A stretch of DNA of 33,831 bases from a virus (IMGVR_UViG_3300033463_000034); one strand, 5' to 3'. Shown: positions 2,095 to 33,831, counted from the first letter of the stretch. The notes: a model not told the origin generated them from the letters alone. Made by a program: numbers and translations.

Positions 2095-2126
2095 AAAAAA
2101 GAGATAGTTTTTATACTATCTCTTTT
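2095..2126 (-). terminator. Intrinsic terminator at the end of the TMP gene
   Basis: Stem AAAAGAGATAG/CTATCTCTTTT with a U-tract on the minus strand, overlapping the TAG stop at 2116-2118. Confidence 0.75.
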
Positions 2127-5100
2127 CCATAATTCTTTGACTTGCGGCATTAACTAAATTATTTAAAGCAGTTTCAATTTCTGCAGCGTTATGTACATTA
2201 GGGAATGTTGCATCAATATGAACATCTTGTTCAAATAATCCGTTTCCGCTTGATATATCATTTCCATGAATATTTGCACTAACACCTGCTAATCTAGCTA
2301 ATGTATTTGAACCTAATGAATAATTTAAATTTCTTATAACTTCAACACTATCTAAAAGATTTTTAGTATCTTTTGAATTTAATACTAATTCTTTTTGATG
2401 TAATCAAGCTAAACGCCCATCATTATCTCCATTATTTCATTCTCCAGTATATCCACCAGTTGCAAATGTAGGTTTAACAAATTTAGATGAAGATGATGAA
2501 GAAGTATTTATAGTAGTTCCATTTACACTAATAGATACAACACTTACTGTTTCTGATTTATTAGGAACATAAGTATATGACATCCCCATTCCAGTACATA
2601 ATCCTTTGGAAGGAATAGACCATGAAGCTTTTACAGAAACTCCATTAATTGTAGCAGTACCAGGAATAGTTACAGATTGGCCTGCTTCTACTTTTTTAGT
2701 AGAATCAGATAAACCATATCCATAATGTAAAGTTATTGTATAATATGTTTTTGCAACAGTAGTAGTTTTTGTAGAAGAAGTTGTTTTTGAAGATGAACTA
2801 CTATTTATCTTATTTCCACTATTAGAAGTATTGTTCGAAGAACTATTTGTATTACTAGAAGTATTTGTTGTAGTTTTTCCATCATTAAATGCTTTGGCTT
2901 CATTTGTTGGAACTGCATCTGGATTAGTTGTATTTCTTGTTTGTTCTTGTGCTGCAGCTTCTTGTCTTTGTCTTTCTAATTCTTGTTGTTGATATGCATA
3001 AGCTGCGGCCGCAGCATCTTTAGCAGCTTTTTCCGCCTCTTTATAATATTCTATTAAATTTTTAACTTCTCCTCAAACAGCTTTTACTGCTTCTAATTCT
3101 CTACCATAAGCATCAATTAAATCATCATTATCTTTTAATAATTCTTCCATTTTTGGTAAATTATCATCTAAACCTTCAGATATTACTCCAAAAGTAATTC
3201 CTGCAGCAACTTCTAATGCTTCAGTATCTGTTTTATATTGATTTTGTGCTTCAATAATTTGATTTCAAGCATTTGTTGTAACTTTTGCAAATCCTTGATC
3301 TCCAGCAAAAGCATCAATCATTTCAGTTAAACCATTTTTTCAAGTTGGAATTAAATTTTCTCTAACAATTTCTCTTTCTTTTTCACTTAAATTTTCATAA
3401 GTTGCATCATTTAATCTTTCTAAATCTCAATAGAATGATTGAGATAAATTATATTTTGAAGTTTCATAATCATTAGCAATTTGCATCATTAATTCATTAT
3501 ATTGTTCCTGAATCATTCGCTCTTTTTCAGCTCTTAATACAGGATCATTGATTAATGCGGCTTCTGCCATTGCTTGTTGATAATTATCTCATGAATCATA
3601 AGCATCATTTAATACTTGATTATATCTTTCTTTATCAAAATTATATAAACTATTATATAATTCATCTAATTTATTTTGAGCTTCATCAATAGCAGCTTGA
3701 TTTGCAACATATTGATAAGTATAATTACCTTGGCTGTCTCTTCTAAGTCTCATTTCAGACCTATTTGCGGCAGCATTTTCTAATTCAATTCTTGCTAATT
3801 CAATTTCATATAATTTATTTGCTCTATCTAAGTCATATTGAGTTAATCTATCTTTTTCTTTTAATTGAGTAATTTGTTCGTTCATTAATTTTTGTAATCT
3901 TTGTTGAATTGAAATTTGTTTACTATCATTTATAGATTTTTGATATTTCTTTTCTAATTCTTTAATACCATAAGTTTTATTTATAGTATCTAAATATCTA
4001 TCCGCATTTTCATTAATTAAGTCTCATTCAGTTTTTACATAATCCAATCCTAATCCGCCCGTAATTGATTCATTTAATTTTTTGAAAATATCATTAATTG
4101 CATTTTCAAATTTATTTTTAGCATTTTCAAGACCTTGTTCTAATATATTATTAAATTCTTGAACTGCACTTTCTCATTTTTCTCTTGCTGATTCTCATTC
4201 TTTAGATCCTTCTTCTGCAGCTTGCATTTCCGCATATCAGAAATCTTTTTGTTGTCTTTGGAAATTTAATTGTTTAGTATAATTTTCTTGTTGTTTTTCA
4301 TAAAATTTAGCCATTTCTCCATAAGCATCTTCACCAAGATACATTTGAGTTAATTTTAAATCATGTTGAATAATTTCAGATAATAATTCATAAGTATGAA
4401 CTTGCTCTGAGAATTTTTCTTGAACTCTATCCATTTCATCAAGAACTGCTTGATGTATTTCTTCTTGTAAATCAAGAACCTCAGATAATGAATCTCTTAA
4501 TTGATCATAATATGTTTTTAAATCTTCTAAAGCTTGTGCTCTATTATTACCATAAACATTATCTTCTCCATTGTCCATTTTACGAATTTCTTCTAAAAGA
4601 TCATTTACTTGTCGAGTAGCTTCTTGTACATCTGCGGTTGCCGCATTATTATAATAAGTGCTATAGTCTAATACTCTAGCTTTAGCATTACCTAAAATAT
4701 CATCTTCTTGAATTCCATCAACAACACGTTTTTTCCATTGATTTCAATCTCTTGTTGCTTGATCCATATTTAAAGAAATTTCAATTTCCATATTAAATTT
4801 CTTAATATTTATTTCAATTTGTTTATCTAGTGAATCAAATATATTTTGTCTTAATTGAGGAATAAAATCAGAAACTAATTCATCATATCTATCTAAATCA
4901 GTTTGGAATTGTTCAAAATCTTTTTTAGCTTGTTCTACGGTATCTTTATATTTTTCTTGTTGCGCTTTTGACATTGAATTATAATTTGCAACAAGGCTAT
5001 TTACATAAGCCTCTTGGCTACGAATTGCTTCAACATAATTATTAATTGTGCCATCTTCATTAAATAGAACACCTTTACCAGATAATTTTTCTGCTAATTC

Positions 5101-8100
5101 TTCTTGTTCTCCATTTGCAATTCTTAATTTTTCATTATAATTATCTATTTGAGTATTTAATAATTCTCATTGTTTATTTAAATTGTCTATTAATTTAGCA
5201 CCAACAAATTTTTCTTGCTCAGCTTGTAATTTTTTTAATGAATTATCTACTTTAGTAATTTGAGTATTTATTTTATGATATCTATCTACTGTTGCTTCAA
5301 CAGGATCCATTTTATCAGGCTTACTTGATGATCCCGATTTACTTAATCCAGTTCCGCCTTTGTTTTTAGATGAAAAATTATTAGCAGACCCACTAGCTCC
5401 TTTAGTAATTTTATTAATTTTTGGAATTACTGTTGTACCAGGTTCAGAAGTAGACATTCCAAAAGCAGGAATCTCACTTTCAATTGGTTTAGATCCAGTT
5501 TCTCTTGTCTCTGTTATTTCATCAAAAGTTTCATAAGTTTGGCCATTTATTGTTTCTGTACCACGATTACCAATTTTATGAGTTGTTGTATATTGTTTTA
5601 CTATACTAGTTACTTTTTGAGGTTGTTCAGCGAAAGTTACATCATAACCCATTCCTGAAAATAATTGATTAACTTGATCAGTTGTTAAACCAGCTTTTTC
5701 AATCATTTTATTACAAGCTTCAACAAAAGCTTGTTGATCTTCTTCTTTAATTTCTACTCCAGCTTCAAGTTTAATATTTAAATTATTTAAATCATTTTGA
5801 AGTTGTTGAATTTGAGATTGAAAAACTTTTGTATCTAATTTGTTTTCTATTCCAATTCCAATAATAATTTCATCTAATGCTGCTTGTCTTAATCTATCAA
5901 TTGCCTCTGCATCACCCTCTGCAGCCAATTGGATATCTTTAGATTGTTTTACAAAAAATTCACCAGATAAAAATTTCTCAGCTTCATCTTCTAAATTTAA
6001 TAAATCTGAAAAAGCTTTTCTCATATCTTTTAAAGATTTTCAATATTCTTCAGATGCTTTATTACTTTCTTTTAATATACTTAATCATTCTTCTTGATTT
6101 TTATTTAAATCTTCAATAGCATCATTCATTCTCATAATAGAACGTGCTACAAATCCTGCGGAAGTACCATTCTCATCTAATGTATCTGCAAGTTCTTCTG
6201 ATTCATCTGCAATATCAGCCAAATATTGACCAAATTCTTTTAAATCATCTTTTTCTAATCCATATAAACTTGCATCTTGAGTTGCAGAAGCTGTTAAAGC
6301 ATTTTCAAATTGTTCTTTTAAAAATTGAGCATACTTTTCTGCATCTCATTCAGATTTCATTGCTAATTCAAAATTTTCAATTAAAGATTTTGCAGCATCT
6401 CCGCCAACTTCTTCTAAATCTTTTACAATAAGATCTTTATACTTAGATACTAATGCATATTCTTTTTCAGATAATTGATTTACATCAAAATCAGCATCAA
6501 ATAATTTATTAATTAATTCATAGCTTAATTTATTTTGAGTATCTTCTCTTAATTTATTTGGTATTTTAGTAACTAAATCTTGATTTTTTGAACCAAATCA
6601 TTCTTCTGCAGCTTGCCAACTACCAAGAATTTGTCCTCATTGTGTTCTTGTATAAGATTCAATTTCTCCTGTTTTAGCATTTCTTACATCTATACCATTA
6701 TTGCCATCTCATCCTCTAACTGCATTATCTATAGAACTATCAACTACATAAGTACCTTCTCCTGCATATTCATTTAATCATGATACAAATTTATCATATT
6801 GTCAATCTCCAGGATCAATAGTAACATTTATATAATCAGCAATTTTTTGTTGTCATTGTTTAGTATATTTTTCAAGATTTTCTTGATATTGATCACTAAA
6901 TAAACGAATTTCTATATTTGATGCTTCGCTACCTAAAATTGAATTTGAAATAGCCTTCATTGTATTTTTTATTTGAATTTCATTATCTTCTCATGCTTTT
7001 CCTCATTGTTGTAATTCTATTCGAGCATTTTTCATTGTTTTAACTCATTGCTGTCCAGCATTTTCAGTAATATAACCATTTTTAATAAATGAATCTGCCA
7101 TTTCTTGAATTTTTTGATTATATTCTTCTGTTGTTATAGTAAATTTAGATAATTCTAATATTTCTGCGTTTGTTAAAACTGCAGGAGTATCTTTTGTATA
7201 AGTTCCACCTAATTCTTTTCTATGAGTTTCTCTTAAATTACTATTAATTCTATTATTTATTGTTTTTGTTTGTAAATCAAACTTCTTTTGTTCCGCTTTA
7301 CTTTGTAAAGATAATGCTGCAGTATTTAAAACAATACTTTGATTTTGTAATTGTTGAACATAATCTTTATATATACCTTCATTTATTGATAATAAACCAG
7401 TATTAATATCTCTTGTAATTATTCCTTCAATTTTTGCTAATTGAGGATATTTTTGTAATATTTCTAATATTGTTTGATTTACATTTTGACAAGCCTTATT
7501 TCATTCTATAGTTCCATCTTTACATTTTTGTAAAGTTTCTAAAGCAGAAGAATATTTATCAAAAGAACTGTTTAAATTATCAACTGTAGTTTGTAATTTT
7601 TCACTTTGTTCTTTTAATTGTTCAGAAGCTTTCTCTAAAGATTTAATTTCTTCTGTTTCTCTATTAGCAGCTTTTACAATAGCATAAATAACTCCAACAA
7701 CAGCCGCTCCAATAGCTAACCAAGGAACTACTTTTTTTAATAAAGCCCCTACATAAGTACCTAATTTAAATACTGAACCACTTGTTTTATTAATAGCTCC
7801 ACTTATTTTATCTTGTTGTAATATAAATTTACCAGAAGTTTCTGTAGCTTTTTTAGAAATAAATGTCATATTAATTCCTTTTAAATTAGAACTATCTGCC
7901 ATACTATTTCTTATTTTTGCAGCCGTATTTTTATCTAATTCTGCAGTATGCTTTTTAATAATAGCTATACTACCAAATCTTGCAATATTAGCAGAATTAA
8001 TTCCTACTAAAATACCAGGCATAATTGCCTTTAATGTTTGAGCGCCTTTTATAAGTAAGCTTAATCCATTAATAAATAAAGGTAAACTCGTGCCGAGTGC

Positions 8101-10593
8101 TGAAAATATTTGAACAGTTTTTTCTCAAATTGATAAACCTTCATTATTTCATATTTTTGAAATATTTAATAATGAATTAATTCCAGAAAACATTTGACCC
8201 AAACCAGCAATTGCATTGGTAAATAATTTTAATTCACCAATTCTTTGCATATTTTCAAAAAATACTTTTGCTTTTGATTCTATAGTACTAATAACTTCTT
8301 CATTATTTTTAATTTCTATTTGTTTATTTTTTAAACTTTCTTTATTTAAAGTATCATAAATATTAGTAATTTTTATTCCTGCAATTTTTGCTCCATTATA
8401 CATATCATTATAAAGTTTACTTAAATTTGAACGTGCTTCTTTTGTTAATCCTGTTTCTATTTGAGTATTTATTTTTTGCATAGTTTCAATAATATTTTGA
8501 TAATCTTCTGTAGAATATATATTTGTTAAAGTAAGAAGAGGTTCATTTGAAAGGGTATTTTTTAAATTTTTATATGCATCTTTAATTTCTTGAATTCTTT
8601 CTTCATATGACTGAGTATCAGTAGAATTTCATTGATATGCTAATTTAGGTATAATTTCTTGATTTAATTCTTCATTAGTTTGTTTTAATTCTTTTAAAAA
8701 ATTATTATCTAAATTATTTCAATCTTCTAATAATTCTTCATGTTCAGCTTCAGATAAATCAATTAATTCAACATATTCAGTGATAGCAGTTTTTATTTCT
8801 TCTTCAATTTTTGCATTAGCTCTTAATTTAGATTCTAATGTTTCAAGATAATCATTACCTTGTTGCACTTGAACTTGGTTTAAATCCCCTTGATATGTAT
8901 TAAAAATATCTTTATAATTACTTAAATTTTTAACTCCTTGTTTATCTAATTCAGAAGAAACACTTATTCTATTAATATTATCTAAGGCAGCTTTAAAATC
9001 ATCTGCGGCATGTTTATTTCTTTCTAAATTAGTTAATGTAATATTTAAACTATTTGCTAAAGTACCACTTAACATTTGAGTTCCAACAGAACCTAACATT
9101 AATAAAGCATTACGACCGCCGCCAATACCTTCAGTAAAGTTAGCTACAAGTGAAATTACTCCAGTTAAACCATCTATTAAACTATTTATACCTTTTTTAT
9201 CTATTAAAGCATTCATTAATCGTTCTGTAGCAGCACTTAATTGATTTAAATGAGCTTCTGTACTTTGCATATAAATATCTTGTTTTTCTTGTAATGAACC
9301 AGTTGCTGTTTCTGCAATAGTTAAATTCTTTTGAAAATCTCCTCAACTATCCATTAATGCAACTAATTGTGTGTATTGTCTAGTACCAGCAACATTTTGT
9401 GCTAATGCTACTTGTTGATCTTTACTTAAAGATTGTCATTTTGAACCCATTTCATCCAAGATTTCATTCATGGATTTAAGCTCACCTTGTTGATTTTTGA
9501 TATTAATACCAACTTTATTTAATGCTTCTGCATATTTACCTAAAGTTGTTCCATCATCTAAAGTTTTTCCTAATTCTAAATCTTGAATTCTTGCAAATAA
9601 TGTTTTAAATGCAGTACCAACTATATCTGCGCTTTGACGAGTTTTAGCAACTACAGTAGCCAATGCAGCAGTTGCATATTCATAACTTAATCCAACAGTA
9701 TCTGAAACTGCAGCAAATTTTTCTAACCCTTCTGCAATTTCTTCAGCGCTTGATGCTGTTGCCGCACCTAATGCAGTAATAACATCTGCAAAATACTCTA
9801 ATGATTTAGAACCTGAATCAAAATTATTCCAAATAGCAGTCATATAATCAGAAACTTCTTTTGCAGAAGATCCTAATACATTAGCCATTTTTAAAGTAAT
9901 TTCAGTTCTTTGATTAGCTTCAGTATCTGATAAACCTTGTTGATAATAAATTAAAGCACCCTTTGTATAATCAAGTGTAGTTCCGCCTAATTCTTTTGCA
10001 GCTTTGTTTGCTTGAACTGCAAATCTTTCCATTTCATCTGCACTTTTTCCAGTAACAATTCTAATATCATTTAATGATTTATCTAAATTTTGACTAAAAC
10101 TTCAAGCTTTTTGAATTGATCCTGTTAAATTATTAAATACACTTGAAGATAAGCCCCATTTAACTGTATTTTTAAATGAAGTTGCAATAGAATTTAATAA
10201 AGTATGAGTTTGTTTAAAATAAGCATTAGTAGTTGTTAATGCTGTATTTAAAGTACCAAATGCGGCAGCTCCAGTAGGACCTAATTTATTTAAATCTTTA
10301 GCTACTTTATCTATACCTATATCTTTGATACCTTTACTAAACTTAGTTAAATTTGTTACACCTACAGCTGGATTAAAAGACTTATCTAATGCCACGCCAA
10401 CTTCATTAGCTGTTTTTTTCAATGACATTAATTCATGTACTGCTTCTTTATAAGTTCCTTGATAATTTGTTGAACCTATAAAACTTGAAGTGGTCATATC
10501 TTGAATCTCTTTTAATTGAGCTTTTAATTGTTGTATTGACTGAGTATCAACATTAAATTTAATACCATACTCCATAGTTCCAGCTTTTGCCAT
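2116..10593 (-). CDS. Tail tape measure protein, ~2825 aa (code 4)
   Basis: Nine track fragments (10102..10593 through 3589..3885) share one frame and are separated by TGA; at least 33 in-frame TGA were traced. TMP-type N-terminal region (DKSLNDIRIVTGKS..MERFA..ANKAAKELG..; AGTRQYTQLVALMDSW), long helical/coiled-coil body, and C-terminal FATGGYTGEW..GRLAWLHQKELVLN motif in which both W are TGA. Stop is TAG. Not every gap was checked codon by codon for TAA/TAG. Confidence 0.9.
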
Positions 10594-10645
10594 ATCCTTT
10601 TTCCTCCTATCATTATGATATTTATATTTTCATTTTTTCTTCCAA

Positions 10646-10685
10646 AATAAAAAATTCCTTCTTATCATATTATGATAAAAAGGAA
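10646..10685 (-). terminator. Intrinsic terminator between chaperone and TMP genes
   Basis: Imperfect hairpin TTCCTTTTTATCATA/TATGATAAGAAGGAA followed by TTTTTTATTTT on the minus strand. Confidence 0.6.
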
Positions 10686-20263: not shown

Positions 20264-20968
20264 ATTTTTTCCTCCTTCTAATGCAAATTTTAAATCTTGC
20301 ATCATAGTAAATAATGTGTGTTTAAAATCATCATCTACTTTACTAAAAGTTGAACTTACTTGTGGAGCTGTTACGCTAGCACCTTCAAAACAAGGTTCAA
20401 CATCTTCTCCTAAGATACATAATTTAGAAAAAATTGCATCATTAATTATGAAAAAATCCATACCTGTTTTAGTATTAGTTGACCAATGTCCATCTAAACT
20501 TTCTTCATCTAATTCCATAGATTGATTATTTCCTTTTTCAATAACTCTTTTAGCTTCTTCGTATTGTCCAGTCCATAAAAAACCAGTAGTCATTAAATAT
20601 TCTCTTGTTATTTTATTTCCAAAATCATCAGTATCTTCAAATTCTTGAAACCATACTTTTGCATCTGGAGCAACAAAACCATAAGGTTTAGTTAAACAAT
20701 TAAATTTAATTCCTTCATCATCAAAGATAACTTGTTCTCCATGATCTGCGAAGTCTTCTTTTTCTTCTTTATAATATCCTACAATAGGAGCCCCTCTTAA
20801 TGTTTTTGCCATGTCTGCGGCAACTTCTTTAGTTATGTAGCTATGATTTCTATTTTCTCCTACATATAAAACTTTAATCTCACATTTAGACATTAAAGGA
20901 TTAATATCTAAAGGTTGAAGATTAATGAATTCAGGAGAACTAATTGTTGCAATTGATTGATGCATCAT
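19550..20968 (-). CDS. Prohead protease-scaffold fusion, 472 aa
   Basis: N-terminal globular domain (KVLYVGENRNHSYI..LRGAPIVG..QSMEL..FSKLCILG..PCFEGA) followed by a very acidic low-complexity linker and a coiled-coil C-terminus; lies directly after the portal. All 4 Trp are TGG. Confidence 0.75.
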   Translation of the reverse strand: MMHQSIATISSPEFINLQPLDINPLMSKCEIKVLYVGENRNHSYITKEVAADMAKTLRGAPIVGYYKEEKEDFADHGEQVIFDDEGIKFNCLTKPYGFVAPDAKVWFQEFEDTDDFGNKITREYLMTTGFLWTGQYEEAKRVIEKGNNQSMELDEESLDGHWSTNTKTGMDFFIINDAIFSKLCILGEDVEPCFEGASVTAPQVSSTFSKVDDDFKHTLFTMMQDLKFALEGGKNMEIENQEVIEETAAETENVEEVVEEETAEASIDTEETSVEETPEAEFSEESEAEESIEEPEVEEEENTEAETEEESNGEQEEETPVEEEIENTEVENESEEVTEEANAESEFSLEDYNSLKASYSELESKYNELVEFKNQVETEKKNNLINSFYMLSDEDKKDVKEHINEYSLDEIEAKLSVICVRNKVNFDSEDIAKNENTTEEENSTVTTFNIENNESSIPAWISACINTQNSQK

Positions 20969-26165: not shown

Positions 26166-27260
26166 TTATCTACTTAATCTATCTTCTTTATTTTTTTTAT
26201 TTCTACAACATTTACAAATACTATATCATCCATCTTTTGAGGTAGAATTTTTAGAAAAATATAAATTATGTGCTAATTTTACTTCTCCACAACGAGAACA
26301 CCTTTTTCATTGACCCTTCTTTTGCGTTGTATAATACCAATTTAAATATCTTTTAACGGCTGATTCCGCCAATAATTTAGGTATTTTATTGCGCCAAAGT
26401 GAACTAATATACTCAACCGAATGTTTTATACCGTGGTTAAGCTCTAGTAAGAACTGGATCTCCGCATTACTTCTACCATCTATTTTATAAATTAATAAAT
26501 CATAATATAAAGGATATTCATCTTTTAATGTGGTTTCAATTAAATTATCTAAGTCTAACATCATATAATAACAATCTCCAGTAAAATGTTCATAACTTTC
26601 TTCTTTTAACATACTATAATTACATAATAAAGCAGAAATATGTTTTGGATTAAAGAAAGAACATAATCCATTACTTACTGGCATACCATTTTTATCAAAT
26701 GTAATTTCTTCATCAAAATCAGCATGTGCAAATGATTTAACTGCATTTGAAATAAAAATAGGTTGTTTAATTGTATTTTTTATTGTATATTGTTCTTGGC
26801 ACATTTCTATTAATTGTTTTTTTAAAGCATATTTTCTTTTACCAGTTGCACGAGCAGCCTGGTTTTTAACATTTTCTATAGCGACATCTAACTCTGCTAA
26901 AGCAGGCATTTCCGCCTTATCTTTAGGCGAGATGTGAATTTTTGGTGTTAATAATACATTTTTATCATTATCTATTGTTATATTATAAAGACCATCTTCT
27001 CCATTTTCAAATTTATTTACCAATCCCTGATAAGATACTTCTCTTTTATTTATTGTAATCATTCTATTGTTTGTTAATATTTCTTTTTTTTGTTTTTCTT
27101 CTTTATCCATAGCTAATACTATATAATTTGATAATATTTCAATATATTTTTCGGTTAATTGATTAGGAGGAGTTTGTCTTACTATTTCTTCTACTAGATT
27201 TTTACGATCTTCCGCATTTTTTAAAGTATAATCAAGTTTAATTTTAGTTTCCACTAGCAA
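26166..27260 (-). CDS. Putative transcription regulator: sigma70-region-4-like HTH plus C-terminal C4 Zn finger, 364 aa (code 4)
   Basis: TTG start after AAGGAG. HTH-like YKIDGRSNAEIQFLLELNHGIKHSVEYISSLWRNKIPKLLA. After TGA 26307: KRCSRCGEVKLAHNLYFSKNSTSKDG-W(TGA 26226)-YSICKCCRNKK, then TAA 26166. Confidence 0.75.
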
Positions 27261-27309
27261 AACTCCTTTCTTTCTATATGTTAATCATCTTTGTCCTATC
27301 TTTATAAAT

Positions 27310-27338
27310 ATTATATTCCAAAAATTTTGAAATGTCAA
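27310..27338 (-). promoter_or_regulatory. Consensus sigmaA promoter driving the minus-strand module
   Basis: TTGACA (27333-27338) - 17 nt - TATAAT (27310-27315), followed by ATTTATA as in the early promoters. Confidence 0.85.
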
Positions 27339-27359: not shown

Positions 27360-27388
27360 TTGATTTTAATAAAAAAGTATAATATAAT
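27360..27388 (+). promoter_or_regulatory. sigmaA promoter P1
   Basis: TTGATT - 17 nt - TATAAT (27383-27388). Confidence 0.7.
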
Positions 27389-27419
27389 ATTTATAGAAAA
27401 AAGAAAAAGGTGAAAATCA

Positions 27420-27692
27420 ATGAATAAATTAAATATATTAAGAATAAAGATAAAAAAATTTTGGATATGCTATTTATATGGCATAGGCAAATATTTGTTA
27501 TGTGCGGCCGCGGTAGCAGGGTTAATGATTCTTTTAGCAGTGACTGCCGCACCAAAAGTATATTATTATATAGATTATAATGGAAATGAAGGAGTCGCTA
27601 AAAATTGTCAAGTAATTGCCGCAGGTTTAGTATGTGAAAAAATGTATGGTGGTAAAATAATGGTAAAAGAATATTCTGAAATAAGGAGGTAA
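27420..27692 (+). CDS. Hypothetical membrane-anchored protein, 90 aa
   Basis: AAGGTG RBS, hydrophobic stretch YLLCAAAVAGLMILLAVTAA, TAA stop. Confidence 0.75.
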   Translation: MNKLNILRIKIKKFWICYLYGIGKYLLCAAAVAGLMILLAVTAAPKVYYYIDYNGNEGVAKNCQVIAAGLVCEKMYGGKIMVKEYSEIRR

Positions 27693-27697
27693 TTAAT

Positions 27698-27856
27698 ATG
27701 GCAGGATATAGAAATAGAAAAATAAGGATGCCTAGAAATCCTATTGGTAGTCCAAGAAAAATAGCTCAAAGAGGTTTTTATGAAATGTTTAATATTTTAT
27801 TAGGAAATGATGTAAAACCTCGTGATTATGGGAAAAAATTAAGGGATAAAAAATAA
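27698..27856 (+). CDS. Small basic protein, 52 aa (below track cut-off)
   Basis: AAGGAGGT RBS; MAGYRNRKIRMPRNPIGSPRKIAQRGFYEMFNILLGNDVKPRDYGKKLRDKK; TAA stop. Confidence 0.7.
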   Translation: MAGYRNRKIRMPRNPIGSPRKIAQRGFYEMFNILLGNDVKPRDYGKKLRDKK

Positions 27857-28170
27857 AATCGTATATTGTAATTGAAAATAGGCTTGGAGATTTTTGTGTC
27901 GAGGCAAAACCCAAATTTAAAAATCAAAAAAAATTTTTCCTACAATACTACCCCTAGTACCTGGCAAATACGTTCTGTAGCAGGTAAAAACCATGGGCAA
28001 CTAGGTATAAAACATAGGGTCGCAGGCACTCGTTTGGCTGCGAATTTTACATAAGATTTACATATAAATAAAATGTAAACTAAAATAAATAAAAAAATAA
28101 ATTAAATAATTTTTCCTAAAATTAAATAGTAAATTGAATTACCTTGAACCGTATTTAAGGGGAACCTTAG

Positions 28171-28184
28171 CGAACATTCGTTTG
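28171..28184. promoter_or_regulatory. Gram-positive LexA (SOS/Cheo) box
   Basis: CGAACATTCGTTTG matches CGAAC-N4-GTTYG. Confidence 0.7.
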
Positions 28185-28226
28185 TATTAAATAAATTAAA
28201 AAAAATTAATTTTTTTCAAAAAACTA

Positions 28227-28255
28227 TTGACAAATTGCTATTGTTATGTTATAAT
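28227..28255 (+). promoter_or_regulatory. sigmaA promoter P2
   Basis: TTGACA - 17 nt - TATAAT with an extended -10 TG and an upstream A-tract. Confidence 0.9.
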
Positions 28256-28288
28256 TATTATAGAAAAAGAGAAAGAGAGTGCTAGAAT

Positions 28289-28465
28289 ATGGAAAAAGAA
28301 AAACTAATGGAAATGATAGAACAAGTTGAAAATGAATTATTTTGTTTAGATTTAATTGATAGATGGACAATAGAAGATAAAAAACAAGCAAATAAATTAT
28401 ACAAAGAATTAGCACAATTAAAAAAACATTTAGCCGAAATAAAAGTAAAAACTTTAAAAAAATAA
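28289..28465 (+). CDS. Hypothetical protein, 58 aa (below track cut-off)
   Basis: Follows P2 with AAAGAGAG leader; MEKEKLMEMIEQVENELFCLDLIDRWTIEDKKQANKLYKELAQLKKHLAEIKVKTLKK; TAA stop. Confidence 0.75.
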   Translation: MEKEKLMEMIEQVENELFCLDLIDRWTIEDKKQANKLYKELAQLKKHLAEIKVKTLKK

Positions 28466-28475
28466 TTAAAACCTA

Positions 28476-28504
28476 TTGACAAATAGATTTGATTATGATA
28501 TAAT
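28476..28504 (+). promoter_or_regulatory. sigmaA promoter P3
   Basis: TTGACA - 17 nt - TG-A-TATAAT. Confidence 0.9.
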
Positions 28505-28537
28505 TATTATAGAAATAAAGAAAGAGAGTTGAAAATT

Positions 28538-28723
28538 ATGATTAATACAAAAACTATTGAATTAAATTATGAAGAAGCACAAACATTAAGAAGAGCATTA
28601 CTTGATAAAATGCAAGAGATAGACTTAACAAATGCTTTCAATGAACCATACTATAGAGCACTTGATAAATTATACACTAAATTAGAAACAATAGAAGAAG
28701 AATTAGAAGAAGAAAGAAATTAA
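28538..28723 (+). CDS. Hypothetical protein, 61 aa
   Basis: Track ORF 28529..28723; ATG 28538 fits the leader spacing better; TAA stop. Confidence 0.75.
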   Translation: MINTKTIELNYEEAQTLRRALLDKMQEIDLTNAFNEPYYRALDKLYTKLETIEEELEEERN

Positions 28724-28797
28724 TTCTATTTAATAATTCTTCTTCTAATTGAAGAAATATCTAGACAATAGGAAAGATTAAAAAGGAGTTGGCGGAA

Positions 28798-29004
28798 ATG
28801 GGTAGAAAAATAATTAAAGAACTAAAACAAATCAAATGGGAAAATGTTGTTACATTGATAATGATAATATTATTTACAATTAGTTTAATTAATCATATTA
28901 TAATAAATGGATTTTACTTTAATCTAATAACTGAATTATTTGTTGACTTGATGTTTATTTTAGCAATAAGATTTACAATAAAAGAAAGTAAAATAAATAG
29001 ATAA
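28798..29004 (+). CDS. Small two-TM membrane protein, 68 aa
   Basis: AAGGAG 9 nt before ATG 28798; two hydrophobic segments separated by a short loop, with basic ends. Confidence 0.7.
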   Translation: MGRKIIKELKQIKWENVVTLIMIILFTISLINHIIINGFYFNLITELFVDLMFILAIRFTIKESKINR

Positions 29005-29006
29005 AT

Positions 29007-29036
29007 AAAATGCAAACAAATGTTTTTGCATTTTTT
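29007..29036 (+). terminator. Intrinsic terminator
   Basis: AAAATGCAAA/TTTGCATTTT stem running into a T-tract. Confidence 0.7.
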
Positions 29037-29149
29037 GTTATAATAAAATGAAATTGGGAAAAACCTTGCTTTAGGGTAAAAGTAGTGTCAAATTTTGTAA
29101 AGCGGCTTGACGGCTCGGGGTGGGTCAGGGCGAGCCGATTTTGCGTACG

Positions 29150-29163
29150 CGAACATTTGTTCG
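29150..29163. promoter_or_regulatory. Gram-positive LexA box (perfect)
   Basis: CGAACATTTGTTCG. Confidence 0.85.
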
Positions 29164-29216
29164 GATTTCGCCGAATAAAAAACGAAAGCGGAAATGATTA
29201 GTTGTTTTCCTAAAAC

Positions 29217-29230
29217 CGAACAAATGTTTG
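29217..29230. promoter_or_regulatory. Gram-positive LexA box
   Basis: CGAACAAATGTTTG, abutting TTGACA at 29233, which is followed 18 nt later by TG-TAAAAT. Confidence 0.75.
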
Positions 29231-29284
29231 AGTTGACAAAATGTCAAATAAAAGTGTAAAATAAAATTAATTAATAAAAAATTA

Positions 29285-29313
29285 TTGATAAATAAATTAA
29301 TTAATGTTATAAT
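29285..29313 (+). promoter_or_regulatory. sigmaA promoter P4
   Basis: TTGATA - 17 nt - TG-T-TATAAT. Confidence 0.85.
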
Positions 29314-29346
29314 TATTATAGTGAAAGAGAGAAAGAGGTTGAAAAA

Positions 29347-29886
29347 ATGAAAAAAATAGTTAAGGTAGTAATTAATTTAATGGTGTTAGTAAGTGCAGTA
29401 ATGATTACAAAAGCAAGAACTTCCGCAAAGGTTGTAACTCAAGTAATAGTTGAAAAGGAAGAACCTATTGTAATAGTAATGGAAAAAAAGGTTATTGAAA
29501 AAGATATTGCTTTCAATAATGCTAATGAAAAAAATATCTATAATAAAGCAATAGAACAAGGACTAACAAAAGAACAAGCAATGTTATTAATAAGTATCTC
29601 AAGACACGAAACAGGTGCTTGGACTAGTAAAGCATTTAAAAATGATAATAACTTTGGTGGCATAATGAGTAATGGTGGTTTAAAACACTATGAAAGTTAT
29701 GAAGAAGGACTTAATGATTTTGTTAGAATATTAAAAACTTATTACTTTGAAAAAGATTTAAATACAATAGAAGAAATAGGTGCAAAGTATTGTCCAGTTG
29801 GAGCGGCAAATGACCAAAATGGTTTAAATAAATATTGGGTTGGCGGAGTTACTAATTTCTACAATTATTACTTAACTTTAATTTAA
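29347..29886 (+). CDS. Exported/membrane-anchored peptidoglycan glucosaminidase (GH73/PF01832-like, lysozyme-like fold), 179 aa
   Basis: N-terminal signal/anchor MKKIVKVVINLMVLVSAVMIT; catalytic region ISRHETG..KAFKNDNNFGGIM..KHYESYEEGLNDFVRILKTYY..TIEEIGAKYCP..YWVGGV, typical of this family. Confidence 0.75.
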   Translation: MKKIVKVVINLMVLVSAVMITKARTSAKVVTQVIVEKEEPIVIVMEKKVIEKDIAFNNANEKNIYNKAIEQGLTKEQAMLLISISRHETGAWTSKAFKNDNNFGGIMSNGGLKHYESYEEGLNDFVRILKTYYFEKDLNTIEEIGAKYCPVGAANDQNGLNKYWVGGVTNFYNYYLTLI

Positions 29887-29899
29887 GCGGCGACCGCAG

Positions 29900-29926
29900 T
29901 CTAGATTTTTCAAATCTAGATTTTTT
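29900..29926 (+). terminator. Intrinsic terminator
   Basis: TCTAGATTT/AAATCTAGA followed by TTTTTT. Confidence 0.8.
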
Positions 29927-29966
29927 CGTGCTTAACCGCTTGCTTCCGCTTCCAACCCGAAAAATG

Positions 29967-29980
29967 CGAACAAATATTCG
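29967..29980. promoter_or_regulatory. Gram-positive LexA box (1 mismatch)
   Basis: CGAACAAATATTCG. Confidence 0.65.
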
Positions 29981-30012
29981 TGTAATAATTTTTCATTGAT
30001 TTGGGGCTTGGG

Positions 30013-30026
30013 CGAACATACGTTCA
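30013..30026. promoter_or_regulatory. Gram-positive LexA box
   Basis: CGAACATACGTTCA. Confidence 0.8.
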
Positions 30027-30069
30027 TATTCCTAAAATTAAAAAAAATAAAAAATATTTAAAAAAAGTA

Positions 30070-30098
30070 TTGACTTTTTACTATTGCTATGGTATAAT
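30070..30098 (+). promoter_or_regulatory. sigmaA promoter P5
   Basis: TTGACT - 17 nt - TG-G-TATAAT. Confidence 0.9.
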
Positions 30099-30130
30099 TA
30101 TTATAGAAATAAAGAAAGAGAGTGGTTAAA

Positions 30131-30325
30131 ATGAATAGAACAGGTTATAAATTAATTGATACAATTACAGGTGAAATAGTAGAGTGTATTTATAGAAATG
30201 TTATTCTAGAAGAAGGACACGAAAGAATGACAAACTATAAAGAAATTTACAACAAAGAGTTTTACTTAGTTGCTATTGATACTACTACTTATGAATTAAG
30301 AGAATATCCTATTCAAAAAAGTTAA
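30131..30325 (+). CDS. Hypothetical protein, 64 aa
   Basis: Track ORF 30122..30325; ATG 30131 fits the leader; TAA stop. Confidence 0.75.
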   Translation: MNRTGYKLIDTITGEIVECIYRNVILEEGHERMTNYKEIYNKEFYLVAIDTTTYELREYPIQKS

Positions 30326-30343
30326 AAACTTTTTGAATAGGTA

Positions 30344-30372
30344 TTGACAAAAATTAATAATTATAGTATAAT
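30344..30372 (+). promoter_or_regulatory. sigmaA promoter P6
   Basis: TTGACA - 17 nt - TATAAT. Confidence 0.9.
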
Positions 30373-30400
30373 TATTATAGTAAGAAAGGGAGTTGATAGT

Positions 30401-30892
30401 ATGGCAAGAAAAATAATTAAGTTTACTAAAAAAGATAAACAATTTATTCAAGACTTTACTAACTCTATCAATAAAAACTTAATAATTGCAATAAGTGAAA
30501 ATAAAAGATTTGAGTGTGATATTCCTAATAATACAATTTATTTAGGACTAAAAAACTTAAATCAAATAGAAAACAACTTATTCAAAAAATGGTTAAAAAA
30601 TGAAAATATAACTATTAAAATGAATAGAAGATTATTAAGTTTGTTACACGAAATAGGACACTTTCAAACTTTCAACGAACAAGAGTTTGAAGATAGAAAC
30701 TCAATGGAAAAAATCTATAATCAAATGTATGAAAATGATTTAATCACTTTTGAAGAATTAAACTTTAATTATTGGAATATGACAAACGAGAAAAAAGCAA
30801 CTTTATGGGGAATACAATATTATTTAGAAAATACAAAAAAATGTAAACAACTAGTTAAAATATTAAAGTTAAATAAATTTGTAAAATTTTAA
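30401..30892 (+). CDS. Putative Zn metallopeptidase (HExxH), ImmA/IrrE-like, 163 aa
   Basis: True start is ATG 30401 after AAAGGGAG (the track start lies in promoter P6). LLHEIGH motif plus a downstream NEKKATLWG helix resembling the E-x-x-A motif of ImmA/IrrE. Confidence 0.55.
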   Translation: MARKIIKFTKKDKQFIQDFTNSINKNLIIAISENKRFECDIPNNTIYLGLKNLNQIENNLFKKWLKNENITIKMNRRLLSLLHEIGHFQTFNEQEFEDRNSMEKIYNQMYENDLITFEELNFNYWNMTNEKKATLWGIQYYLENTKKCKQLVKILKLNKFVKF

Positions 30893-30900
30893 AAAAACTA

Positions 30901-30929
30901 TTGACATAAATAAATAAAAGTGCTATAAT
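30901..30929 (+). promoter_or_regulatory. sigmaA promoter P7
   Basis: TTGACA - 17 nt - TG-C-TATAAT. Confidence 0.9.
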
Positions 30930-30961
30930 ATATATAGAAATAAAGAAAAGGAGTGATAATT

Positions 30962-31120
30962 ATGGCTAAAAGAAAACCAGTAGTTCAAAAAGTAGTAGTT
31001 GACAAAAATGCAAAACAATTTATGAGAACAGCATTAAACCTTGCAAGAAAAGGAAAAACAAACAAAAAATTGCATGGTCGTAATGCTAACCCAAAAGCAA
31101 TGAAATACAACATTGCTTAA
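30962..31120 (+). CDS. Small very basic protein, 52 aa (below track cut-off)
   Basis: AAGGAG RBS; MAKRKPVVQKVVVDKNAKQFMRTALNLARKGKTNKKLHGRNANPKAMKYNIA; has its own promoter and terminator. Confidence 0.8.
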   Translation: MAKRKPVVQKVVVDKNAKQFMRTALNLARKGKTNKKLHGRNANPKAMKYNIA

Positions 31121-31145
31121 GTGTAAAGTAATTTACACTTTTTTT
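31119..31145 (+). terminator. Intrinsic terminator
   Basis: AAGTGTAAA/TTTACACTT followed by TTTTT. Confidence 0.8.
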
Positions 31146-31253
31146 GTTTTAAATTAATACTTTACATTTGGTTGACAGCGGGCCGCCTTCGTGGGTCATT
31201 TCTCGCTGCGGCCCGCATTTTTACAGAGACTTTACATGTAAAGTTTTGTCAAT

Positions 31254-31283
31254 CGAACATTGGTTCTAGCGAACAAATGTATT
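31254..31283. promoter_or_regulatory. Tandem LexA boxes (one good, one degenerate)
   Basis: CGAACATTGGTTCT (31254-31267) and CGAACAAATGTATT (31270-31283). Confidence 0.7.
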
Positions 31284-31318
31284 TTTCCCAAAATTATTAA
31301 AAAAAATTAAAAAAAGTA

Positions 31319-31347
31319 TTGACTTGTTGCCGCCATTGTGCTATAAT
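31319..31347 (+). promoter_or_regulatory. sigmaA promoter P8
   Basis: TTGACT - 17 nt - TG-C-TATAAT. Confidence 0.9.
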
Positions 31348-31376
31348 ATTTATAGAGAAAAGGAAAAGGTGAGAGA

Positions 31377-31778
31377 ATGAAAAAAGTTTACTTAGACATG
31401 GACGGAACTATCGCTAATTTATACACACAAAATAACTGGTTAGAAAGATTAGAAAACGAAGATAAAACAATATTTTTAGATTGTAAGCCAATGACTACAC
31501 AAGAAACATTATTAAAATTATTTCCTATTGATAAATTTGAAATAGTTATCTTAACAATGACACCAAAAAATTGTTCTATTAAATATCATAATCAAGTAAT
31601 AGAACAAAAGAAACAATGGTTAGAAAAGTTTTTCCCAATGTTAAAAAAACAAATATTTATTAAGTATGGAAATAATAAAAACTTAAAAAATAGTGCTAAT
31701 GCAATTTTAATTGATGATAATGCGGTTATTCGTGATAATTTCCGCGGAATTGCACTTAATCCCGCAAACCTTTGGTAA
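31377..31778 (+). CDS. HAD-superfamily 5'(3')-deoxyribonucleotidase-like protein (NT5C-like), 133 aa
   Basis: Motif I VYLDMDGTIANL, motif II ILT, K..WL, motif IV ILIDD. Confidence 0.8.
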   Translation: MKKVYLDMDGTIANLYTQNNWLERLENEDKTIFLDCKPMTTQETLLKLFPIDKFEIVILTMTPKNCSIKYHNQVIEQKKQWLEKFFPMLKKQIFIKYGNNKNLKNSANAILIDDNAVIRDNFRGIALNPANLW

Positions 31779-31806
31779 AAAAAATAAAAAATATTTAAAA
31801 AAACTA

Positions 31807-31835
31807 TTGACAATATTTTTTAAAAATGATATAAT
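31807..31835 (+). promoter_or_regulatory. sigmaA promoter P9
   Basis: TTGACA - 17 nt - TG-A-TATAAT. Confidence 0.9.
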
Positions 31836-31870
31836 TATAATGTAATAAAGAAAGAGAGAGATAAATTAAA

Positions 31871-32614
31871 ATGACAAAGAAAATTGACTTGAAAAAAGAA
31901 AAATATCTACTTTTTGTAGATACTGAAACAATAGGAACTTTAAATGTAAAAGAAAGTGTACTACCATTTGAAATAGGTATTAAAGTATTAGATACTGAAA
32001 CAAATAAAATTGTTAAAGAAAAAAGTTATTTAGTAAGAAAATTCTTTAATAATAAATATATAATGTTATCAACATTTAGTGCTACAAAATATCCAAATTA
32101 TTTTGAAAAGTTAGAAAATGATAAAAGATACAAAACAATGAGTGCTAATGATATTTCAAAAGATTTAGAAAAAACAATTCAAAGATATAATATTAAAATA
32201 ATGGTTGCACACAATGGAAACTTTGACCAACAAGCAATAGCAAGATTATTTGAGGACTTTGGAGTTGAAAATCCACTTGAAAATATTGATTTACTTGATA
32301 CAATGGAAATATCAAAAATAATAACATTTAGTAAAGATTATGCTAACTATTGTATAGAAAATAAAGATAGATTAAATAGTTTAAAAGAAAGTTGTTTTAT
32401 AACTAATAGTGGTAGAGTAAGAACAACAGCACAAGCAATTTATTGCTATTTATCAAATAATGCCGACTTTCAAGAAGCACACACAGGACTTGAAGATATA
32501 GACATTGAAATAGAAATATTTAAAAAATCTATGGAAATGTTAGGAAATACAATAGTAAATCTAAACACTGCACCAACTTGGAGAGATTATTCAAAAGTAA
32601 TTGAAGAAGATTAA
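31871..32614 (+). CDS. DEDDh (DnaQ-like) 3'-5' exonuclease, 247 aa
   Basis: ExoI FVDTETIG, ExoII VAHNGNFD, LDT, ExoIII EAHTGLEDI. Confidence 0.88.
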   Translation: MTKKIDLKKEKYLLFVDTETIGTLNVKESVLPFEIGIKVLDTETNKIVKEKSYLVRKFFNNKYIMLSTFSATKYPNYFEKLENDKRYKTMSANDISKDLEKTIQRYNIKIMVAHNGNFDQQAIARLFEDFGVENPLENIDLLDTMEISKIITFSKDYANYCIENKDRLNSLKESCFITNSGRVRTTAQAIYCYLSNNADFQEAHTGLEDIDIEIEIFKKSMEMLGNTIVNLNTAPTWRDYSKVIEED

Positions 32615-32646
32615 TTCTTCTTCAATTATAAAAAGGTTGTGATATT

Positions 32647-32724
32647 ATGATAAAAAAAATAAAATGGAAAATAGTTTGTATTTGTGCTTGGTTGATAAAT
32701 AAGCAAAATAGATGGGAAGATTAA
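32647..32724 (+). CDS. Putative 25-aa Trp/Cys-rich peptide
   Basis: AAAGGTTGTG leader; MIKKIKWKIVCICAWLINKQNRWED; TAA lies inside the following terminator. Confidence 0.45.
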   Translation: MIKKIKWKIVCICAWLINKQNRWED

Positions 32725-32738
32725 AAATCTTCTTTTTT
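32716..32738 (+). terminator. Intrinsic terminator
   Basis: GAAGATT/AATCTTC followed by TTTTTT. Confidence 0.7.
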
Positions 32739-32751
32739 GGTTGCGGCAATG

Positions 32752-32765
32752 CGTATTTATGTTCG
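32752..32765. promoter_or_regulatory. Degenerate LexA box
   Basis: CGTATTTATGTTCG (reverse complement CGAACATAAATACG), followed by ATTGACA. Confidence 0.5.
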
Positions 32766-32944
32766 ATTGACAAATTATTTACATTTACTTTACGCGGGCG
32801 GCGCGCTCACGATAGAAAAACTTCATTGCGCGCCGAATTTACATAAGGTTTACATATTAGAAAATCTCGTACCGCCGCGATACGCCAGGCTGCGTTGTAA
32901 GATTTTCCCAAAATAAAAAAAATTAAAAAATTTTTAAAAAATGC

Positions 32945-32973
32945 TTGACTTATTTTTAAATAAATGATATAAT
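32945..32973 (+). promoter_or_regulatory. sigmaA promoter P10
   Basis: TTGACT - 17 nt - TG-A-TATAAT. Confidence 0.9.
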
Positions 32974-33006
32974 TATTATAGAAAAAAAGGAAAGGAGATG
33001 ATTGAA

Positions 33007-33201
33007 ATGTCTACAAAAAGTAAATTAATTTATTTAAAAGTTTTAATGAATATTAAAAACAATGTTTACTCACAAAATCAAGCACAATTAAAAAATGATT
33101 TATTAATGATTAAAAGACTTTTAATCATTGAAAATCAAGATAAAACAAACTTACAAAAAATTGAAAAAAATATGCAAAAACTATTGACAAAGGCAAGTTA
33201 A
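33007..33201 (+). CDS. Hypothetical protein, ~64 aa
   Basis: Track ORF 32998..33201; ATG 33007 has the better spacing from AAGGAG. The 3' end overlaps the -35 of P11. Confidence 0.7.
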   Translation: MSTKSKLIYLKVLMNIKNNVYSQNQAQLKNDLLMIKRLLIIENQDKTNLQKIEKNMQKLLTKAS

Positions 33202-33212
33202 TATGATATAAT
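33184..33212 (+). promoter_or_regulatory. sigmaA promoter P11
   Basis: TTGACA - 17 nt - TG-A-TATAAT. Confidence 0.9.
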
Positions 33213-33244
33213 TATTATAGAAATAAAGAAAGAGAGTGATAGTT

Positions 33245-33397
33245 ATGTTAAGATTAGTTGATAGAGTTGAAAATAAAAGTTATAAAGGTTCAAAAAAATC
33301 AATTATGACTTTACTACAATTAAAGTTCAATGAGTACAAATATTATGGAATATTAAAAGGTATTGTTTGTATAAACGATACTTGGTACATAGGTTAA
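33245..33397 (+). CDS. Hypothetical protein, 50 aa (below track cut-off)
   Basis: Follows the P11 leader; MLRLVDRVENKSYKGSKKSIMTLLQLKFNEYKYYGILKGIVCINDTWYIG; TAA stop. Confidence 0.7.
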   Translation: MLRLVDRVENKSYKGSKKSIMTLLQLKFNEYKYYGILKGIVCINDTWYIG

Positions 33398-33412
33398 AAG
33401 GGGGTTGTTAAA

Positions 33413-33646
33413 ATGGTTAAATGGACTGCTCAAGAATTACTAGATACTTTCAATAAAGAAACAAATCTAGAAGAATTAAATGAGTTATACAAAGCACTAA
33501 TTGCTTATAACTTAGGTTGTACTACTATTGAAGAAGATAAACTAAACGAGGTTTTAGAATACTATTACTCTCAAGACTTTATTTATAGTATTATTAATCA
33601 AGATGTAATTGATTATGCTAATGAAATTTTAGAACAAATTCATTAA
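33413..33646 (+). CDS. Hypothetical acidic protein, 77 aa
   Basis: AAAGGGGG RBS, TAA stop. Confidence 0.75.
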   Translation: MVKWTAQELLDTFNKETNLEELNELYKALIAYNLGCTTIEEDKLNEVLEYYYSQDFIYSIINQDVIDYANEILEQIH

Positions 33647-33652
33647 AAAGTA

Positions 33653-33681
33653 TTGACTTTCTATAATAGTTATGTTATAAT
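33653..33681 (+). promoter_or_regulatory. sigmaA promoter P12 (no downstream ORF)
   Basis: TTGACT - 17 nt - TG-T-TATAAT. Confidence 0.8.
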
Positions 33682-33751
33682 TATTATAGAAAGTTAAACA
33701 AAGGTTATTACATAATTAATTTAAAAAAAATAAAAAAATTCAAAAAAACTA

Positions 33752-33780
33752 TTGACATTAAAAATTAATTATGTTATAAT
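33752..33780 (+). promoter_or_regulatory. sigmaA promoter P13
   Basis: TTGACA - 17 nt - TG-T-TATAAT. Confidence 0.85.
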
Positions 33781-33831
33781 ATAAATGTAATAAAGAAAAG
33801 GAAACTTTATTACAAATAGTTAAAAAATCCA

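Follow-up and report, generated by a model that had tools for sequence, protein, structure and literature searches.

Predicted LexA operators in the early control islands of an apparently lytic rumen phage

The early region of IMGVR_UViG_3300033463_000034, a linear virus record of the IMG/VR database (105,241 bp, 27% GC), carries a cluster of short palindromes that resemble the LexA (SOS) boxes of the Bacillota, whose consensus is CGAAC-N4-GTTCG. We analysed the 33,831 nucleotides at one end of this record (hereafter the window). On balance, we consider the boxes to be genuine operators for the LexA of a Bacillota host, and think that selection has maintained them in the control islands at the head of five early transcription units. 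This reading is based on the excess of the boxes over chance, their unrelated flanks, the same island context in relatives, and the base preferences and mismatch pattern that they share with the lexA operators of a candidate host family.

Predicted LexA boxes of the early region exceed chance expectation

Sites were sought with the consensus pattern, mismatches being counted over its ten fixed positions with the central N4 left unspecified. The 2,042 nt of early intergenic DNA yielded six matches at one mismatch or fewer compared with 0.014 expected. No more than one such match arose in any of 5,000 dinucleotide-preserving shuffles, which were performed segment by segment on the intergenic DNA between 27857 and 32997 only. 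Over the whole window, nine matches at two mismatches or fewer were found against 1.5 expected. A preliminary description of the window had listed seven to eight boxes, confined to the early region. The pattern scan recovered all eight sites at the positions given in Table 1, each of them intergenic, and their excess over shuffled sequence is clear from the six matches above. Of these, six sites have at most one mismatch and one has two; the site at 31270, with three, is really a half-site. Confinement to the early region was upheld, as the late module shows a single 2-mismatch site, at 2824. Elsewhere in the 105,241-bp contig, two sites at one mismatch or fewer were present, both within open reading frames (ORFs): one at 30676 and one in an NrdD-like gene at contig position 71488. 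No further intergenic site was found at this threshold in the 105-kb contig. The site at 30676-30689 is probably a chance match, or no operator.

The 30-nt flanks on each side of the boxes are mutually unrelated, so a common repeat unit is not the source of the boxes. In six sites and the half-site at 31270 (the seven intergenic boxes considered here), mismatches are confined to the promoter-proximal half, the promoter-distal half (CGAACA) being perfect; all seven left halves have A at position 6. The mismatch bias in the related locus L013 is mostly opposite to that of the window. Among 31 unique boxes of this phage family, A occupies position 6, which was unspecified in the search, in 52 of 62 half-sites (84%), and the commonest deviation is CAAAC/GTTTG. 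Judged by sequence, the assignment of the sites as Bacillota-type LexA boxes thus appears sound: they match far beyond chance, display an A6/T9 preference that was not searched for and share their motif with lexA operators of the candidate host family described below.

Boxes occupy intergenic control islands upstream of early promoters

Some 14 near-consensus sigma-A promoters (TTGACA-17-TATAAT), mostly with a TG extension, were identified in the early region (27360-33800), each ahead of a small gene. The boxes are restricted to five long GC-rich intergenic islands, each lying downstream of a transcription unit. Within each island, a GC-stem hairpin and its T-run come first, then TTTACA/TTGACA repeats in direct and inverted orientation, one or two boxes, TTTTCCYAAAAT, an A-rich stretch and the next promoter, in that order. 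Promoters positioned directly behind the preceding gene, without an island, have no box; about five of the approximately 14 early promoters are near a box and about nine are box-free.

The nearest boxes are separated from the next strong -35 element by 42, 54, 43 and 35 nt. With the exception of B2 at promoter 29233, box centres lie approximately 45-64 bp upstream of -35 centres, beyond the usual reach of an UP element. Only B2 overlaps or abuts core promoter elements, and promoter 29233 is the sole promoter in the window that bound LexA would directly occlude. These observations agree with the preliminary description in placing most boxes upstream of promoters rather than on them, B2 alone abutting a -35. 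The gaps it gave also hold, as do the hexamers adjoining the boxes: TTGACA lies 2 nt past the boxes at 29217 and 32752, and TGTCAA ends 1 nt ahead of that at 31254. The hexamer following 32752 starts at 32768, however, and not at 32767. Its suggestion of DNA looping is not supported, since paired boxes are spaced 67, 46 and 16 bp centre to centre and thus not by whole helical turns. A helical phasing between box and -35 (approximately 5.0, 6.1 and 5.0 turns in the window) was likewise dropped, as it is not kept in relatives.

A second repeat family is found within the islands (28040-28080, 31118-31253 and 32768-32860 of the window; L001:5540-5660; also L013 and L016). It comprises TTTACA/TTGACA hexamers repeated directly at intervals of 11-12 nt, together with palindromes (for example TTTACATGTAAA), and is kept in relatives with or without LexA boxes. 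At least six loci contain the composite GTTCG-A-TTGACA.

Several boxes stand right behind the T-run of a hairpin (B1 by 7 nt, three in L013, and those of L146, L162 and L176), as would be expected of a roadblock or insulator. LexA bound just past weak, large-looped terminators would then block read-through, leaving each cassette on its own promoter until SOS induction. The long loops and short T-runs do suggest leaky termination. Conversely, other boxes lie 35-130 nt from the hairpin, the next promoter is of consensus strength, such that read-through would add little, and relatives manage without boxes. We consider such a role very unlikely.

Table 1. Boxes, hairpins and box-associated promoters of the early region (window coordinates; mismatches to CGAAC-N4-GTTCG).
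Feature	Coordinates	Strand	Sequence or property	Context
Box A	28171..28184		CGAACATTCGTTTG, 1 mismatch	42 nt upstream of -35 of promoter 28227
Box B1	29150..29163		CGAACATTTGTTCG, 0 mismatches, perfect palindrome	7 nt past T-run of hairpin B
Box B2	29217..29230		CGAACAAATGTTTG, 1 mismatch	2 nt upstream of -35 of weak promoter 29233; 54 nt upstream of -35 of strong promoter 29285
Box C1	29967..29980		CGAACAAATATTCG, 1 mismatch	
Box C2	30013..30026		CGAACATACGTTCA, 1 mismatch	43 nt upstream of -35 of promoter 30070
Box D1	31254..31267		CGAACATTGGTTCT, 1 mismatch	preceded by TTTACATGTAAAG and TGTCAAT; orthologue is a perfect box at L016:7502
D2 half-site	31270..31283		left half CGAACA perfect, right half degenerate, 3 mismatches	35 nt upstream of -35 of promoter 31319
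Weak box E	32752..32765		CGTATTTATGTTCG, 2 mismatches, right half perfect; followed by A and then TTGACA	
ORF-internal site	30676..30689		CGAACAAGAGTTTG, 1 mismatch	within 162-residue ORF; absent from the preliminary list
Island A hairpin + T-run, terminator-like	28015..28049	+	-12.2 kcal/mol, z -3.1	
Island B GC hairpin	29097..29144	+	-21 kcal/mol	followed by ATTTT
Island C terminator hairpin	29899..29926	+		behind glucosaminidase gene
Island D GC hairpin	31178..31221	+	9-bp GC stem, -26.3 kcal/mol, z -3.7	followed by ATTTTT
Island E GC hairpin	32799..32840	+	-17 kcal/mol	followed by AATTT
Consensus sigma-A promoter	28227..28255	+	TTGACA-17-TATAAT	downstream of box A
Weaker promoter	29233..29262	+	TTGACA-18-TAAAAT	abuts box B2
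Strong promoter	29285..29313	+		exported glucosaminidase-like gene; tandem with 29233
Strong promoter	30070..30098	+		downstream of C1 and C2
Strong promoter	31319..31347	+		cassette of 5'-nucleotidase-like gene then exonuclease gene; downstream of D1/D2

Boxes are variably present among related phages

The 247-residue exonuclease gene served as query for relatives and retrieved 21 loci from viral records and 67 from metagenomes; every one came from a ruminant or gut sample. When whole records were scanned at one mismatch or fewer, close relatives held between 0 and 7 boxes. Record G004, which contains locus L013, possesses seven (five in the early region), the L016 fragment three (all perfect) and G001 three. 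G002, complete with terminal repeats, has one; G003, likewise complete with terminal repeats, has none, as is the case for G005 and the records of L009, L007, L020 and L017. The boxes of L013, L016, L012 and about a dozen metagenome loci reside in the same type of island, 35-115 nt upstream of an early promoter. Those of the relatives are placed directly behind the hairpin T-run or amid TTTACA repeats, and in L019 and L176 a box abuts a full consensus promoter. Across the early regions of the 67 metagenome loci (425 kb), 25 boxes were counted, the reversed control pattern giving 5, and nearly all of the contexts examined were islands.

Orthologous islands give some indication of what is retained. 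Upstream of the nucleotidase gene, which has an orthologous box in this phage and L016, TTTACATGTAAAGTT-w-TGTCAAT and the box are kept, whereas the hairpin and the remainder of the island have diverged. The orthologous islands of L165, L168 and L183 have fixed half-sites and a variable spacer, and between L176 and L180 the imperfect half switches side. The homologous islands of L001 contain only TTTACA-type repeats at the box positions of this phage. An exact-pattern search for island D returned the L016 contig only; closer relatives of the NT5C gene have no island upstream of it and hence afford no orthologous comparison.

Two further boxes of G004, one of them perfect, flank the junction of two replication-region genes (G004:C1:20348-20361 and 20509-20522), apparently within coding sequence. 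At the homologous place in this phage, contig position 82446, a 2-mismatch version is found.

The three box-cluster phages fall into three different groups of the exonuclease tree, in which the sister of this phage is box-less; the tree, built on a single gene of a mosaic region, points to repeated gain or loss of boxes and shows that the basic early programme does not depend on them. The islands are located exactly at mosaic junctions, with cassettes shuffled among relatives. This arrangement, together with the absence of monophyly among box-bearing phages on that tree, would suit elements of no regulatory role, whether conserved linker words for module exchange at cassette junctions or remnants of captured host promoter DNA. 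We give this very little credence. The box flanks are unrelated, half-sites are held constant around a changing spacer in the orthologous islands (L165/L168/L183 and L176/L180), and this reading offers no explanation for the boxes' exact fit to the LexA consensus and its A6/T9 preference.

The number of boxes varies freely among relatives, as if dose counted over position, and this raises the prospect of a LexA sink, the titration suggested in the preliminary description. With seven sites per copy and hundreds of copies, the boxes would soak up host LexA as the genome multiplies and would not regulate phage promoters. Host SOS genes (recombination, repair and division arrest) would in consequence be derepressed without damage, or LexA would be kept bound to DNA and uncleavable by RecA*. 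Consistent with a sink, most boxes are off promoters, each genome provides several predicted high-affinity sites, and DNA-bound LexA is protected from RecA* (PMC4234289). On the other hand, the boxes are not scattered and have a constant place in islands upstream of early promoters, with one orthologous position conserved. Furthermore, many relatives have a single box, too few to titrate LexA at low copy number, and our literature searches found no published precedent. We regard a sink as unlikely.

A candidate host family shares the operator motif

Relatives of the major capsid protein were found on phage-sized contigs binned in many metagenome-assembled genomes (MAGs), mostly of Bacillota, the closest (78% identity) in an 'Erysipelotrichaceae' MAG. 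As binning is inconsistent across taxa, the host assignment is only a lead. The family of one such MAG, G008, consists of small low-GC genomes and has lexA in 59 of 61 sampled. The region upstream of its lexA contains two boxes, one in the spacer of a divergent promoter and one overlapping the lexA -35. Operators of this family include CAAACATTTGTTCG, CGAACAATTGTTTG and CGAACAAATGTTTG, the last being identical to phage box B2. In its lexA operators position 6 is A in 23 of 26, and these operators also show the CAAAC/GTTTG deviation of the phage boxes. In lexA loci L118-L123 of this family, lexA is divergent from a small gene and the two boxes are 28-35 bp apart, forming a conserved double operator. 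LexA of C. difficile binds AGAACAAATGTTTG in vitro (PMC4234289). Taken together, binding of the phage boxes by host LexA is likely on the strength of their sequence, and a LexA-bearing low-GC Bacillota is a plausible host.

A search of 20 kb of phage DNA for matches resembling spacers of clustered regularly interspaced short palindromic repeats (CRISPR) in 301 candidate-family genomes turned up nothing beyond binned phage contigs and AT-rich, promoter-like matches, neither of which proves the host. In 300 of these 301 genomes, sequences with 75-92% identity over 40-120 nt were matched by the A-rich upstream portions and -35 elements of early promoters (28186-28271, 29236-29374, 30034-30155, 31290-31349 and 31772-31989). 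Such matches may represent promoter mimicry or simply AT-rich composition.

Searches for phage regulators and lysogeny genes

We next consider proteins of the phage itself. No S24 peptidase, HTH_3 domain or integrase was detected in the contig, which is approximately 70% complete, and five relatives, including two with complete genomes and terminal repeats, likewise showed neither integrase nor S24 peptidase. The LexA_DNA_bind domain was absent from the three box-bearing records examined (G000, which is this phage, G004 and L016). Searches by tblastn for homologues of gp1, gp6 and gp7 of the tectivirus GIL01 returned only noise, with E above 0.01. Additionally, no ORF is exclusive to box-bearing phages.

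Two candidates were considered. A 67-residue helical early ORF (32998-33201) has homologues only in G004/L013 (5 boxes) and in L017 (no boxes in 8 kb); as it also occurs in the box-less L017, the pattern was judged too weak for a LexA cofactor. A divergent 390-residue regulator candidate (26166-27338) is present in all relatives, boxed or not, which speaks against it as box binder.

These results bear on a further alternative, namely that another protein sharing the LexA motif, encoded by the phage or by the host, recognises the palindromes, host LexA being irrelevant. A precedent exists in GIL01 gp6, described as a phage LexA homologue acting on phage promoters (PMC6182141). The boxes are also interleaved with the TTTACA/TTGACA repeat family, the seven intergenic boxes all keep the same half perfect, and the contig is incomplete. 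Against such a binder, G000, G004 and L016 lack LexA_DNA_bind, S24 and HTH_3 alike, homologues of the three GIL01 proteins were not found, neither of the candidates above follows the boxes, and the details of the motif agree with lexA operators of the candidate host. We think it improbable.

The preliminary description had also invoked an accessory co-factor and had cited GIL01, which uses host LexA to hold lysogeny. No gene co-occurs with the boxes, and the co-factor was not found. A lysogeny lock of the GIL01 type is not supported: integrase, S24 peptidase, LexA-like domain and homologues of the GIL01 proteins were not found in the searches above, and only about five of some 14 early promoters are near a box. 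The phage is apparently lytic, although an episomal carrier state may be possible because GIL01 itself lacks an integrase.

Other features of the phage

The completeness estimate was obtained with CheckV; the record is a linear fragment, and window position 33831 is the contig end. DNA of the phage is present in bovine gut runs of several studies. Late genes on the minus strand (window 2116-10668 and most late genes) require TGA to be read as Trp, one late frame of 2,850 residues containing 34 in-frame TGA codons. Conversely, the plus-strand early genes (27420-33646) have no in-frame TGA, and the standard code suffices.

Scans of the window against Rfam and for transfer RNA (tRNA) genes gave no match. 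A cluster of GC-rich tRNA-like genes was seen at contig positions of approximately 102,500-105,241, the end opposite the window. Comparison of the early region with known phages by blastn produced trivial matches only. The small early proteins had no match in Pfam and PHROGs, the latter being empty for ten of them; larger early proteins had only weak Pfam/PHROGs matches at or below cut-off (glucosaminidase, NT5C and RNase_T). Relatives of the glucosaminidase were sought in viral contigs and none was found. A 162-residue early protein (30404-30892) contains an HExxH motif, has 29-53% identity in all relatives, boxed or box-less, and gave no Pfam match at E up to 0.01.

The -10 region of early promoters (28248-28262, 28497-28511, 30091-30105 and others) reads TTATAAT-T-ATTATAG, a 7-1-7 inverted repeat with a single base difference from TTATAATnATTATAA, the PerR/Fur-type box of B. 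subtilis. Possible readings are another site for a host regulator or simply a palindromic extension of the -10.

Proposed mechanism and significance

If the boxes are LexA operators, LexA dimers of an undamaged cell would occupy the islands upon DNA entry. At promoter 29233, LexA would cover the -35 and repress. At the other islands, each with a very strong promoter, it would bind at the distal margin of the A-tract (UP-like) region, and might damp initiation without shutting it off. Cleavage of LexA during SOS would then raise the cassettes of the small early proteins, of the exported glucosaminidase, and of the nucleotidase and exonuclease; the phage's own nuclease/nucleotidase cassette may itself trigger SOS. 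Our best reading of the net effect, which we infer, is a partial, SOS-relieved damping of island-headed cassettes combined with full control of promoter 29233. Some early genes would thus probably respond to host DNA damage.

Several points weigh against host-LexA operators of this kind. Most boxes lie off promoters, so that classic occlusion does not apply and the damping is purely inferential; occlusion fits only promoter 29233 here and, among relatives, the L019/L176 promoter. The close relatives whose genomes are complete have 0 or 1 box, which makes the boxes dispensable. With the contig approximately 70% complete, a phage regulator could have been missed. Finally, the G008 family is linked to the phage through co-binned related contigs, and contigs of this kind also occur in bins of other taxa. 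The proposed LexA wiring would be an optional, host-dependent add-on, and not a master switch of the early programme.

A more general proposal is that virulent, TGA-recoded rumen phages repeatedly gain and lose off-promoter arrays of LexA operators. Rather than classic repressor sites, such arrays would be LexA-recruiting or LexA-draining devices that couple the early programme, or the SOS state of the host, to infection. We advance this tentatively and hold it to be rather doubtful.

LexA operators are familiar from temperate phages and other mobile elements. To our knowledge, LexA sites on mobile elements have been recognised almost only in temperate phages, where they act as induction triggers, and our literature searches yielded no account of a virulent phage with LexA-box arrays in its early region, nor of LexA titration by a phage. 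Here, a large and apparently lytic phage, whose host is plausibly an uncultured rumen Bacillota, has predicted LexA sites arrayed at non-promoter positions. If LexA binds them, they would provide an experimentally accessible example of a virulent phage that reads or manipulates the SOS state of its host. They would also help to predict the host, as one whose LexA uses CGAACA-N2-TGTTCG, and supply a natural series of boxed and box-less relatives for experiments. Should the off-promoter LexA device prove true, it would be a use of a host regulator not described for lytic phages.

Comparison with known systems

The phage has the general character of the 'Agate' TGA-recoded gut phages: it is large, low in GC and of ruminant gut, its late genes read TGA as Trp, and its early genes fit the standard code; the keyword-matched passages of that paper do not describe LexA boxes or control islands (Borges et al., bioRxiv 10.1101/2021.08.26.457843).

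The Bacillota SOS (Cheo) box, known for example from the lexA and recA operators of B. subtilis and C. difficile, has the same 14-bp palindrome, A6/T9 preference and GTTTG/CAAAC variants as the boxes described here (PMC4234289). The C. difficile recA operator, which binds LexA in vitro, is one base off phage box B2. The two differ in placement: chromosomal SOS operators overlap the -35, spacer or -10, whereas five of the six strong phage boxes are set 35 to 54 nt or more ahead of the -35.

In tectivirus GIL01 of B. thuringiensis, LexA acts with gp7 at dinBox1/dinBox1b of promoter P1 (PMC4551915), and the LexA-like gp6 acts at P3 (PMC6182141). Both phages are without a CI-type repressor and have host LexA sites, predicted in the present case, in an early control region. 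The full site D1 with half-site D2, a pair also present in L016, recalls dinBox1/dinBox1b. The GIL01 sites, however, lie just downstream of the start of a single key early promoter and hold lysogeny, while those described here are upstream of a minority of some 14 early promoters. No homologue of gp7, gp6 or gp1 and no sign of lysogeny were found in this phage, and its close relatives include phages without the sites.

A parallel among virulent phages is provided by phi29. Its sites overlap the main early promoters, their effect has been shown experimentally, and both the regulator and the signal differ from the LexA case. Nevertheless, phi29 is a virulent phage of the Bacillota that uses host Spo0A and parS-type sites in its early region to read the state of its host.

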